64,000 nt of DNA. Source: Escherichia coli O157:H7. Lineage in GTDB: Bacteria; Pseudomonadota; Gammaproteobacteria; Enterobacterales; Enterobacteriaceae. Positions 36,243 through 58,941 of the stretch are shown one piece after another. The notes under the pieces are model-generated. The model had not been told where the DNA came from and made no database searches. It was given only the letters and a program-made list of their open reading frames with translations. The stretch lies in assembly GCF_013167455.1 (NCBI RefSeq), contig NZ_CP038328.1; one strand, given 5' to 3'. The stretch's first letter is position 1, and every line of letters starts with the position of its first letter. Made by a program: the position numbers and the translations under genes.

Positions 36243-36266
36243 ATTATACGGAGCAGGAGAGTTCAC

Positions 36267-36533
36267 ATGTCTGCTGTTAAAAAGCAGCGTATCGATCTGC
36301 GTTTAACTGACGATGACAAAAGTATGATTGAGGAAGCGGCAGCGATATCTAATCAGTCCGTCAGCCAATTTATGTTGAACAGCGCTTCGCAGCGGGCTGC
36401 GGAAGTGATTGAACAGCATCGGCGGGTGATCCTCAATGAGGAATCCTGGACGCGGGTGATGGATGCGCTGAGTAATCCACCGTCACCAGGTGAAAAGCTA
36501 AAACGTGCGGCAAAACGTCTTCAGGGAATGTAA
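36267..36533 (+). CDS. DUF1778-family antitoxin (TacA/AtaR/ItaR-like) of a GNAT toxin-antitoxin module
   Basis: 88 aa, 6 nt upstream of a GNAT toxin gene; small charged protein typical of DUF1778 antitoxins. Confidence 0.8.
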   Translation: MSAVKKQRIDLRLTDDDKSMIEEAAAISNQSVSQFMLNSASQRAAEVIEQHRRVILNEESWTRVMDALSNPPSPGEKLKRAAKRLQGM

Positions 36534-36539
36534 TAATTT

Positions 36540-37067
36540 ATGGATGATCTGACGATAGAGATTCTGACCGATGATGCAGATTATGATCTACAGCGATTCG
36601 ACTGCGGCGAGGAAGCGTTAAATCTCTTTCTGACGACACATCTCGTTCGTCAACATCGCAACAAAATTCTGCGAGCGTATATCCTTTGTCGCAACACTCC
36701 AGAACGTCAGGTGCTGGGATATTACACATTATGCGGCAGTTGTTTTGAACGAGCCGCATTGCCCTCGAAATCGAAACAGAAAAAAATTCCCTACAAAAAT
36801 ATTCCCAGCGTTACTCTTGGGCGTCTGGCAATTGATCGTTCATTACAGGGGCAGGGATGGGGAGCAACACTGGTTGCTCATGCCATGAAAGTCGTCTGGT
36901 CAGCCTCTTTAGCGGTAGGTATTCACGGTCTTTTTGTCGAGGCGCTGAATGAAAAAGCCCATACGTTTTATAAATCGCTGGGCTTTATCCCTTTAGTCGG
37001 GGAAAACGAAAATGCGTTATTTTTCCCAACCAAATCCATTGAACTGCTTTTTACACAGAGCGATTAA
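36540..37067 (+). CDS. GNAT-fold acetyltransferase toxin (TacT/AtaT/ItaT-family tRNA-acetylating toxin)
   Basis: 175 aa; motifs FDCGEEALNLFL and LGRLAIDRSLQGQGWGATL are typical of aminoacyl-tRNA-acetylating GNAT toxins. Confidence 0.8.
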   Translation: MDDLTIEILTDDADYDLQRFDCGEEALNLFLTTHLVRQHRNKILRAYILCRNTPERQVLGYYTLCGSCFERAALPSKSKQKKIPYKNIPSVTLGRLAIDRSLQGQGWGATLVAHAMKVVWSASLAVGIHGLFVEALNEKAHTFYKSLGFIPLVGENENALFFPTKSIELLFTQSD

Positions 37068-37447
37068 CGCTTCTCCCAGCCGCCCTGCTGTGCCGTAAAT
37101 CCCAGTGCCTGCATAAACGCCGTCATCACACCGCGATCTTCCACGCCTGCATCCGCCATCCACCAGCATGAAACGCCAGGATTGTTACGCAAAACCTCTT
37201 CCAGCAGATATTGCCCCACACCGCGACGTCGAGTGACTTCCCGCACGCGCAGGGAATCCAGTGCCCCCTCGGTGCCGCTTAAGGTTACCCGCACGGCAGC
37301 AAGCAGGCGCTCGTTAAAACGCGCGGCGTAGATGCGGTGGTTATCGTCAACCTGTAAAGAGGAAGGGGAATACTCCGGCCAGATCTTTTGCAGGTCAATC
37401 CGGTCCTGGTCGCTAAATTTTTCTAATCGAATGATGGTCAGCTTCAT
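37064..37447 (-). CDS. panZ: PanD maturation factor PanZ (PanM/YhhK; GNAT fold)
   Basis: 127 aa matching PanZ; its 3' end overlaps the toxin gene's 3' end by 4 bp (convergent). Confidence 0.85.
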   Translation of the reverse strand: MKLTIIRLEKFSDQDRIDLQKIWPEYSPSSLQVDDNHRIYAARFNERLLAAVRVTLSGTEGALDSLRVREVTRRRGVGQYLLEEVLRNNPGVSCWWMADAGVEDRGVMTAFMQALGFTAQQGGWEKR

Positions 37448-55935: not shown

Positions 55936-56931
55936 ATGAAAAAGAAAAGACCCGTACTTCAGGATGTGGCTGACCGTGTAGGCGTGACCAAAATGACGGT
56001 CAGCCGTTTTTTACGCAACCCGGAGCAGGTTTCCGTCGCTCTACGCGGCAAGATTGCCGCGGCTCTTGATGAACTGGGCTATATTCCCAATCGTGCGCCC
56101 GATATCCTCTCTAACGCCACCAGCCGGGCGATTGGCGTCCTGTTACCTTCTCTCACCAACCAGGTTTTCGCGGAAGTATTACGCGGAATCGAAAGCGTCA
56201 CCGACGCGCACGGTTATCAGACCATGCTGGCCCACTACGGTTATAAACCGGAAATGGAGCAAGAACGTCTCGAATCAATGCTCTCATGGAATATCGACGG
56301 ACTGATCCTCACCGAACGTACCCACACGCCGCGCACCTTAAAGATGATTGAAGTGGCGGGGATCCCGGTGGTGGAGTTGATGGACAGCCAGTCGCCGTGT
56401 CTCGATATCGCCGTCGGTTTTGATAACTTTGAAGCGGCACGCCAGATGACCACAGCCATTATTGCTCGCGGGCATCGCCACATTGCCTATCTCGGCGCAC
56501 GTCTCGACGAACGTACTATCATCAAACAGAAGGGATACGAACAGGCGATGCTGGATGCAGGCCTGGTGCCATATAGCGTGATGGTTGAGCAATCTTCTTC
56601 TTACTCTTCCGGTATTGAACTGATTCGCCAGGCACGGCGGGAATATCCGCAGCTGGATGGCGTGTTCTGTACTAATGATGATCTGGCGGTCGGCGCGGCG
56701 TTTGAATGTCAGCGTCTGGGGTTAAAAGTTCCTGACGATATGGCGATTGCCGGTTTCCACGGTCATGACATTGGTCAGGTGATGGAGCCACGACTTGCGA
56801 GCGTGCTGACGCCGCGTGAGCGGATGGGCAGTATTGGCGCTGAACGCCTGCTGGCGCGTATTCGTGGCGAATCTGTGACACCGAAAATGTTAGATTTAGG
56901 TTTCACCTTGTCACCGGGCGGATCTATTTAA
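55936..56931 (+). CDS. gntR: Gluconate repressor GntR (LacI family)
   Basis: 331 aa; N-terminal HTH (LQDVADRVGVTKMTVSRFL) plus periplasmic-binding-protein-like domain. Confidence 0.93.
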   Translation: MKKKRPVLQDVADRVGVTKMTVSRFLRNPEQVSVALRGKIAAALDELGYIPNRAPDILSNATSRAIGVLLPSLTNQVFAEVLRGIESVTDAHGYQTMLAHYGYKPEMEQERLESMLSWNIDGLILTERTHTPRTLKMIEVAGIPVVELMDSQSPCLDIAVGFDNFEAARQMTTAIIARGHRHIAYLGARLDERTIIKQKGYEQAMLDAGLVPYSVMVEQSSSYSSGIELIRQARREYPQLDGVFCTNDDLAVGAAFECQRLGLKVPDDMAIAGFHGHDIGQVMEPRLASVLTPRERMGSIGAERLLARIRGESVTPKMLDLGFTLSPGGSI

Positions 56932-57010
56932 GCCCACAAATTTGAAGTAGCTCACACTTATACACTTAAGGCACGGATGGATATTGCTTCTGATATTGTC
57001 CGGCTGGACA

Positions 57011-57039
57011 ATGTTACCGATAACAGTTACCCGTAACAT
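57011..57039 (+). promoter_or_regulatory. GntR operator pair in the gntK promoter
   Basis: Two adjacent dyads, ATGTTACCGATAACA and GTTACCCGTAACAT, 30 to 60 bp upstream of gntK. Confidence 0.6.
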
Positions 57040-57069
57040 TTTTAATTCTTGTATTGTGGGGGCACCACT

Positions 57070-57597
57070 TTGAGCACGACTAACCATGATCACCACATTT
57101 ACGTCTTGATGGGCGTATCGGGCAGCGGCAAATCTGCGGTCGCAAGTGAAGTGGCGCATCAACTTCATGCCGCGTTTCTTGATGGCGATTTCCTCCATCC
57201 ACGGCGCAATATCGAAAAAATGGCGTCTGGCGAACCGCTGAATGACGACGATCGCAAACCGTGGTTGCAGGCGCTGAACGACGCCGCGTTTGCTATGCAG
57301 CGCACTAATAAAGTGTCGCTGATCGTCTGTTCTGCATTGAAAAAACACTATCGTGACTTGCTGCGTGAAGGTAATCCGAATCTCTCTTTCATCTACCTGA
57401 AAGGCGATTTTGATGTGATTGAAAGCCGCCTGAAAGCGCGCAAAGGCCATTTCTTTAAAACCCAAATGTTGGTGACGCAGTTTGAAACGCTGCAGGAGCC
57501 GGGTGCGGACGAAACCGATGTACTGGTGGTGGATATCGATCAACCGCTGGAAGGTGTTGTGGCAAGCACCATTGAGGTTATTAAAAAAGGCAAATAA
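57070..57597 (+). CDS. gntK: Thermoresistant gluconokinase GntK
   Basis: Start at the TTG at 57070 (MSTTNHDHHIYVLMGVSGSGKS) gives 175 aa with a P-loop. Confidence 0.9.
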   Translation: MSTTNHDHHIYVLMGVSGSGKSAVASEVAHQLHAAFLDGDFLHPRRNIEKMASGEPLNDDDRKPWLQALNDAAFAMQRTNKVSLIVCSALKKHYRDLLREGNPNLSFIYLKGDFDVIESRLKARKGHFFKTQMLVTQFETLQEPGADETDVLVVDIDQPLEGVVASTIEVIKKGK

Positions 57598-57600
57598 GTA

Positions 57601-58941
57601 GTGACTACATTAACGCTTGTTTTAACAGCAGTAGGGTCTGTTTTACTGCTGCTGTTTTTAGTCATGAAGGCGCGTATGCACGCTTTCCTGGCTTTAATGG
57701 TGGTGTCCATGGGGGCTGGCCTTTTTTCCGGTATGCCGCTCGATAAAATCGCAGCGACGATGGAAAAAGGGATGGGAGGCACCCTCGGCTTCCTGGCGGT
57801 GGTTGTCGCCCTGGGAGCTATGTTTGGCAAGATCTTACATGAAACCGGCGCAGTCGATCAGATTGCCGTCAAAATGCTTAAATCCTTCGGTCACAGCCGC
57901 GCGCATTATGCCATCGGCCTTGCGGGGCTGGTCTGTGCGCTACCGCTGTTCTTTGAAGTGGCGATTGTTCTGCTGATTAGCGTTGCTTTCTCAATGGCGC
58001 GCCACACCGGTACGAACCTGGTGAAGCTGGTAATCCCATTATTCGCAGGCGTGGCGGCCGCGGCGGCGTTCCTGGTGCCAGGGCCAGCGCCAATGCTGCT
58101 GGCATCGCAGATGAACGCCGATTTTGGCTGGATGATCCTGATTGGCCTGTGTGCGGCAATTCCGGGAATGATTATTGCCGGGCCGCTGTGGGGTAACTTC
58201 ATCAGCCGTTACGTTGAGCTGCATATTCCTGACGACATCAGCGAACCGCATCTCGGCGAAGGCAAAATGCCATCCTTCGGATTCAGCCTGTCGCTGATCC
58301 TGCTGCCGCTGGTGCTGGTAGGGCTGAAAACCATTGCCGCGCGTTTTGTGCCGGAAGGCTCTACCGCTTACGAATGGTTCGAGTTTATTGGTCATCCGTT
58401 TACCGCGATTCTGGTTGCTTGTCTGGTAGCGATTTATGGCCTGGCAATGCGTCAGGGCATGCCAAAAGACAAAGTGATGGAGATTTGCGGTCACGCGCTG
58501 CAACCGGCGGGGATCATTCTGCTGGTGATTGGTGCGGGCGGCGTGTTCAAACAGGTGCTGGTTGACTCTGGCGTAGGTCCGGCACTGGGCGAAGCGTTAA
58601 CCGGCATGGGCCTGCCGATTGCCATCACCTGCTTCGTGCTGGCCGCTGCAGTGCGCATCATTCAGGGTTCTGCAACCGTTGCCTGTTTAACGGCGGTGGG
58701 ACTGGTGATGCCGGTTATTGAACAACTGAACTACTCCGGTGCGCAAATGGCGGCGCTGTCGATTTGTATCGCCGGTGGTTCGATTGTTGTCAGCCACGTT
58801 AACGACGCTGGTTTCTGGTTGTTCGGTAAATTTACCGGCGCGACCGAAGCCGAAACGCTGAAAACCTGGACCATGATGGAAACCATCCTCGGCACTGTCG
58901 GTGCCATCGTTGGGATGATTGCGTTCCAGCTGTTGAGTTAA
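57601..58941 (+). CDS. gntU: Low-affinity gluconate transporter GntU (GntP family)
   Basis: 446-aa polytopic GntP-family permease with a GTG start. Confidence 0.9.
   Translation: MTTLTLVLTAVGSVLLLLFLVMKARMHAFLALMVVSMGAGLFSGMPLDKIAATMEKGMGGTLGFLAVVVALGAMFGKILHETGAVDQIAVKMLKSFGHSRAHYAIGLAGLVCALPLFFEVAIVLLISVAFSMARHTGTNLVKLVIPLFAGVAAAAAFLVPGPAPMLLASQMNADFGWMILIGLCAAIPGMIIAGPLWGNFISRYVELHIPDDISEPHLGEGKMPSFGFSLSLILLPLVLVGLKTIAARFVPEGSTAYEWFEFIGHPFTAILVACLVAIYGLAMRQGMPKDKVMEICGHALQPAGIILLVIGAGGVFKQVLVDSGVGPALGEALTGMGLPIAITCFVLAAAVRIIQGSATVACLTAVGLVMPVIEQLNYSGAQMAALSICIAGGSIVVSHVNDAGFWLFGKFTGATEAETLKTWTMMETILGTVGAIVGMIAFQLLS

Follow-up and report, generated by a model that had tools for sequence, protein, structure and literature searches.

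The 29-mer at positions 57011–57039 (ATGTTACCGATAACAGTTACCCGTAACAT) of the window, by which we mean the whole 64,000-nucleotide stretch of Escherichia coli O157:H7 DNA that was analysed, almost certainly represents the known GntR operators of the E. coli gntKU operon, an element whose textbook regulation is already known. It lies in the gntR–gntK intergenic region, and its 3′ end falls 31 nt short of the TTG start codon of gntK at 57070. We rely on the literature for the binding of GntR, for its reversal by gluconate and for the part played by each site, and the identity of the element, its statistical significance, its match to the regulon and its conservation come from the present analysis.

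A 301-bp query around the site was 100% identical to E. coli O157:H7 chromosomes and was found in 5424 of the 5426 complete E. coli genomes. The genes of the locus follow the order gntR–gntK–gntU, all on the plus strand in the RefSeq annotation. gntR (55936–56931) encodes the LacI-family gluconate repressor, a protein of 331 amino acids with the Pfam LacI helix-turn-helix (PF00356) and Peripla_BP domains, and the winged-helix family PF00392 was absent among the families reported for it at E ≤ 0.001. E. coli GntR is thus a member of the LacI family and not of the winged-helix GntR family of the FadR/HutC type, with which it has the name alone in common. gntK (57070–57597) encodes a gluconokinase of 175 amino acids with a P-loop kinase Pfam match, and gntU (57601–58941), which is co-transcribed with gntK, encodes the low-affinity gluconate transporter (Pfam GntP_permease, E = 2e-168).

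The original prediction of a TTG-initiated gntK agrees with the RefSeq start at 57070, where the orthologues carry ATG or TTG, with ATG at this same position in several genera. A Shine-Dalgarno-like G run read from the sequence, TGGGGG (57057–57062, plus strand), lies 8 nt 5′ of the start codon, and the orthologues have GGAG or GGGG at its position. In the list of open reading frames, the gntK frame reaches further upstream, to an in-frame TTG at 57049 (182 amino acids). Both the orthologues and the position of the ribosome-binding site support 57070, rather than 57049, as the start of gntK.

Two other features of the window were observed in passing. The stretch between gntU and yhgN, from 59081 to about 62400, holds a DprA-like gene and a RecQ-family helicase pseudogene with a frameshift; the gntU–yhgN gap in K-12 measures just 56 bp, and an insertion of about 3.5 kb is therefore specific to the O157-type strain. 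The annotation of this strain also has an ataR–ataT toxin–antitoxin pair in the interval from livJ to panM (36260–37070 of the window, 4414463–4415263 of the record).

The 29-mer consists of two 16-bp pseudo-palindromes in tandem, neither of which is assigned to a strand. Operator 1 (ATGTTACCGATAACAG, with a central CG) occupies 57011–57026 and operator 2 (CAGTTACCCGTAACAT) occupies 57024–57039, so that, framed as 16-mers in keeping with the literature, they have 3 bp in common (57024–57026), and their centres at 57018.5 and 57031.5 are spaced by 13 bp. The two palindromes originally pointed out are present to the exact letter, at 57011–57025 and 57026–57039; their description as adjacent holds in that there are two tandem sites, but not for the 16-bp frame, in which they overlap. 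A repeat search returned both a 13-nt direct repeat with a spacing of 13 nt (57013–57025, GTTACCGATAACA, and 57026–57038, GTTACCCGTAACA; 85% identity) and a composite inverted repeat, a 31-nt palindrome with arms at 57010–57024 and 57026–57040 that are 87% complementary. Both kinds of repeat are expected here, because two near-palindromes in tandem must yield them. Operator 1 agrees with ATGTTACCGGTAACAT at 14 of 16 positions, as does operator 2 with ATGTTACCCGTAACAT, the consensus given in PMC10450161. Against the pseudo-palindrome ATGTTACC(C/G)GTAACAT, the fit is 14/16 for operator 1 and 13–14/16 for operator 2. In the E. coli gntK pair, the inner half-sites are degenerate and the outer half-sites are perfect.

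In K-12 MG1655, the 29-mer is identical to 57011–57039, and the whole gntR–gntK intergenic region differs from that of K-12 by one substitution in total, which lies outside all of the conserved blocks. PMC4052901 (Ravcheev et al. 2014) cites Izu et al. (1997, J Mol Biol 267:778) and Tsunedomi et al. (2003, J Bacteriol 185:1783) for the promoter–operator region of K-12 gntKU. According to the same paper, the GntR sites ahead of gntKU, which overlap at a distance of about 13 bp, have a function that was demonstrated by Tsunedomi et al. (2003). The operator 1 16-mer also serves as the GntR operator in a gluconate-responsive mammalian switch, whose response to gluconate was lost upon deletion of the 16-mer or a 2-bp insertion at its centre (NAR 2023, PMC10450161). 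With respect to the gnt genes in general, PMC2230225 describes repression by GntR, activation by cAMP-CRP and, citing Peekhaus and Conway (1998), the release of GntR from its target DNA by 1 mM gluconate. In addition, a bioRxiv paper gives the gntT sequence ATGTTACCCGTATCAT as "the E. coli GntR operator", and an ACS Synth Biol 2026 paper employs PgntK without a description of its operators. The assignment of the palindromes to the GntR operator type is thereby borne out by the 29-mer identical to that of K-12, by the literature on the gntKU sites and by the identity of operator 1 with a published 16-mer.

To assess the weight of the match, we counted the core GTTACNNNTAAC in the 64-kb window and found four strand-matches, as compared to 0.14 expected, a number reached in none of 100 shuffles. 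We also built a symmetric weight matrix from five K-12 16-mers of the gntT, edd and idnK/idnD promoters, with the gntK sites left out. These training sites were chosen with the help of a prior consensus, and only one of them, the gntT site ATGTTACCCGTATCAT, was confirmed in an accessible paper. Over about 64,000 positions, the matrix ranked operator 1 first (18.4 bits) and operator 2 second (16.6 bits). Shuffled windows contained 0.07 sites at ≥16.6 bits, and a pair spaced by 13 bp arose in none of 200 shuffles. The alignment with characterised gntK and gntT operators that had been proposed as a check thus favours the assignment, both in the identity with K-12 and in the ranking by a matrix that includes gntT. 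The third-best match (37182–37197, TTGTTACGCAAAACCT, 13.9 bits) lies within the panM coding sequence and is most likely due to chance, given that the best match in shuffled windows averages 13.4 bits.

Could the palindromes themselves be chance matches without a regulatory role? Short AT-rich palindromes do arise by chance, and nothing else speaks for such an origin, to which we give virtually no credence. It is opposed by the shuffles, none of which produced such a pair, by the at least 100 independent genomes that retain the pair upstream of gntK while the flanks diverge, and by the published functional data. A chance origin of the pair is excluded by the shuffle statistics and the conservation.

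The conservation was examined by scanning species-representative genomes with the DNA pattern GTTACNNNTAACNGTTACNNNTAAC, which yielded at least 120 stretches; by our own estimate, about 9 matches would be expected by chance in about 600 Gb, counting both strands. Among the 120 matches listed, 100 sit 31–166 bp upstream of a gntK orthologue found by tblastn, measured from the mid-point of the site to the gene start. Also among the matches listed, such gntK-linked pairs occur in Escherichia, Salmonella, Citrobacter, Klebsiella, Enterobacter and Kluyvera, as well as in Edwardsiella, Photorhabdus, Providencia and Proteus, where GntK identity is 64–74%. The 120 loci were picked by the operator pattern and give no fraction of gntK promoters that retain the pair, and because the set was selected in this manner, we judged conservation only at the positions left free by the pattern.

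At those positions, the outer AT of operator 1 is present in all of the 100 gntK promoters and the A at 57038 in 99 of them. The pattern-free positions of operator 1 are conserved at 90–100%, and the central triplets of the operators at 79–97%. Position 57025, the exact centre of the composite, is A in 66 promoters, T in 33, G in one and C in none, a composition that fits an outer base serving both sites, one on each strand. In an alignment of 18 sequences, comprising the window and 17 other genera in a gapless register from the operators back for about 100 bp, the operators (57011–57039) have a mean information of 1.59 bits at their free positions. The information in this alignment resides solely in the CRP half-sites, the −35 and −10 elements and the operators; near-background values are seen in the 17-bp spacer (0.41 bits) and 3′ of operator 2 (0.35 bits). 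Between operator 2 and the start codon lie 17 to 152 nt, depending on the locus.

The composite 31-nt palindrome might instead act in RNA, as a terminator or attenuator hairpin for read-through from gntR, which we consider very improbable. Its complementary arms would allow such a structure, and in E. coli a TTTTT run follows at 57039–57043. However, the predicted fold reaches only −5.7 kcal/mol (z = −0.79), and 41 of 200 shuffled sequences fold as well or better. A terminator scan calls none here, and other genera retain the palindromes but not the T run. Furthermore, a gntKU transcript beginning at about 57019 would be without the left arm. An intrinsic terminator, which would have a stable G+C-rich hairpin and a conserved T run, is disfavoured by the weak fold, the scan and the lack of conservation of the T run.

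The conserved blocks around the operators delineate a putative promoter on the plus strand. The candidate −10 element, GACAAT (57007–57012; 1.61 bits), ends in the first 2 bp of operator 1, and five of its six positions (GAnAAT) are nearly invariant in the 100 gntK promoters (G 99, A 98, A 98, A 100 and T 100). The candidate −35 element, TTGCTT (56984–56989; mean of 1.60 bits), is located 17 bp upstream, and this spacing is fixed while the letters of the spacer diverge. Further upstream, a CRP-like site (AAATTTGAAGTAGCTCACACTT, 56938–56959, not assigned to a strand) contains the core TTTGA-N6-TCACA (56941–56956, centre 56948.5). Its half-sites are 93–97% conserved in the 18 sequences, and Photorhabdus has TGTGATAAATATCACA in the same register. 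Activity of this predicted CRP site in the activation of the E. coli gnt genes would fit the literature on cAMP-CRP (PMC2230225).

The likely gntKU transcription start would lie at 57019–57020 on the plus strand, 7–8 nt 3′ of the −10 element. With such a start, the operators would be centred at about −1 and +13 and the CRP site at about −70.5 to −71.5, a usual class I position. The location of the operator pair upstream of gntKU is certain, and its overlap with the −10 element and the start is deduced from the conserved hexamers. It was also foreseen that the pair lies just before gntK; the sites are indeed upstream of the TTG start, but they would cover the transcription start as well. In the accessible literature, we found no usable mapped gntK transcription start or CRP position.

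The unconserved sequence and variable length of the region 3′ of operator 2 argue against a promoter downstream of the operators. Two candidate −10 elements there, TTTAAT (57041–57046) and TATTGT (57052–57057), were rejected, as this region is conserved across the genera neither in sequence nor in length; TATTGT would also leave almost no leader ahead of the ribosome-binding site. The gntK promoter was missed by a generic sigma-70 scan, whose lone match, on the minus strand at 56914–56887 inside the end of gntR, was disregarded. The gntK promoter is presumably weak and activator-dependent.

The mechanism is known in outline. GntR, encoded just upstream, recognises both 16-bp operators according to the literature, and on this layout the bound repressor would cover the end of the −10 element, the predicted start and the first 20 or so transcribed bases. 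Its occupancy may block the binding of RNA polymerase, the formation of the open complex or the escape from the promoter. Gluconate binds GntR and causes its release, as the literature describes, and cAMP-CRP, at a predicted site with its centre some 71 bp ahead of the start, could then activate the freed promoter, with the probable outcome that the synthesis of gluconokinase and GntU requires both gluconate and a lack of glucose. We infer the exact positions of the −35, −10, start and CRP elements, as well as the occlusion step, the latter from the geometry.

The 13-bp spacing bears on how the two sites could be occupied. The same operators may be bound alternately, by one GntR dimer at a time in either register, in which case the two overlapping registers would raise the odds that the start site is covered; we regard this as a genuine possibility, though not the favoured one. 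In keeping with it, the inner half-sites abut and share the 3 bp described above, the two dyads are rotated by about 86° at 13 bp, and the geometry of LacI/PurR-type binding suggests that a mere 2 bp or so would separate the inner recognition helices. According to PMC4052901, the shared bases belong to the region of specific contacts, and dimers at such a distance cannot interact. The combination of degenerate inner and perfect outer half-sites in E. coli is likewise in keeping with alternate binding. On the other hand, the preference for the 13-bp distance over 110 operons (PMC4052901) suggests a specific joint geometry, not mere redundancy. Several lineages, moreover, retain two perfect palindromes at 13 bp, e.g. 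GTTACCGGTAACTGTTACCGGTAAC in Advenella and Streptomyces. Both elements reportedly matter in the mutational analysis of Tsunedomi et al. (2003), which likewise speaks against mere alternation.

Given the rotation of about 86° and the distance of about 2 bp between the inner helices, the dimers may therefore either alternate or bind together with distortion of the DNA. We suggest, as a speculative and rather unlikely proposition, that the overlap may impose an unusual mode of binding, with two dimers on 29 bp and marked distortion, or with one register-switching dimer. If this were true, gntKU would offer the simplest natural example on which to test a layout that is found at >100 LacI-family operons and is not explained by the existing LacI/PurR–DNA structures. 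The question has already been raised by Ravcheev et al. (2014), and only the answer would be new.

As a discovery, the element carries little weight; it confirms that a real, characterised operator can be recognised from raw sequence. Operator 1 is already in use in gluconate-responsive synthetic switches, and the putative CRP/−35/−10/double-operator layout may provide a compact map for promoter engineering.

The element is the same as the E. coli K-12 gntKU promoter–operator, with the same flanking genes; the host here is an O157:H7-type strain, and nothing of substance differs. Within the regulon, the gntT, edd and idn operators of E. coli have the same 16-bp pseudo-palindrome of the ATGTTACC-GGTAACAT type as the gntK pair. 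gntT has two sites, ATGTTACCCGTATCAT and ACGTTACCCATAACAA, 141 bp apart, and edd has two sites, ATGTTACCGGTAAAAT and TTGTTACGCGTAACAA, 222 bp apart, and the idnK/idnD region has a single site, ATGTTACGCATAACGT. When we used the matrix to look for scoring partner sites at 13 bp at gntT, edd and idn, none was found. The tight 13-bp pair is thus particular to gntK among gntK, gntT, edd and idn in E. coli.

Two details of the K-12 sites were observed alongside. At edd (locus L003, 3578–3593), the GntR-type 16-mer TTGTTACGCGTAACAA lies 12–27 nt inside the coding sequence, 222 bp from the upstream ATGTTACCGGTAAAAT. In the idnK/idnD intergenic region (locus L004, 4489–4522), a lone TGTTAC half-site (TTGTTACATTACTATGTTAC...) is present exactly 13 bp upstream of ATGTTACGCATAACGT, and may be a degenerate remnant of the tandem layout.

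Among LacI-family regulators, the overlapping tandem sites described by Ravcheev et al. (2014, PMC4052901) have the same 13-bp centre distance as the gntK pair. The gntKU locus is named there as the functional example of this class; there is no difference between the two, and gntKU is the type example. We also observed 13-bp tandems, often of two perfect GTTACCGGTAAC palindromes, outside the Enterobacterales, in Advenella, Phycisphaerae, Chloroflexi, Streptomyces and others (L013, 1349–1373; L021, 4184–4208; L022, 10223–10247; L035, 3184–3208; L051, 9984–10008; L054, 4203–4227). They adjoin genes for LacI-family regulators, a 2-hydroxyacid dehydrogenase, a TctC receptor, a sugar ABC ATPase, and GH35 and GH2 glycosidases, and fit the class of Ravcheev et al. 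(2014).

The lac operator O1 with LacI provides a further parallel: as at gntK, a LacI-family repressor, a pseudo-palindrome over the transcription start (the predicted one in the case of gntK) and release by a small-molecule inducer are combined. In contrast, the lac system relies on auxiliary operators far from O1 and on DNA looping by a tetramer, whereas the second site at gntK overlaps the first, at a distance of 13 bp.
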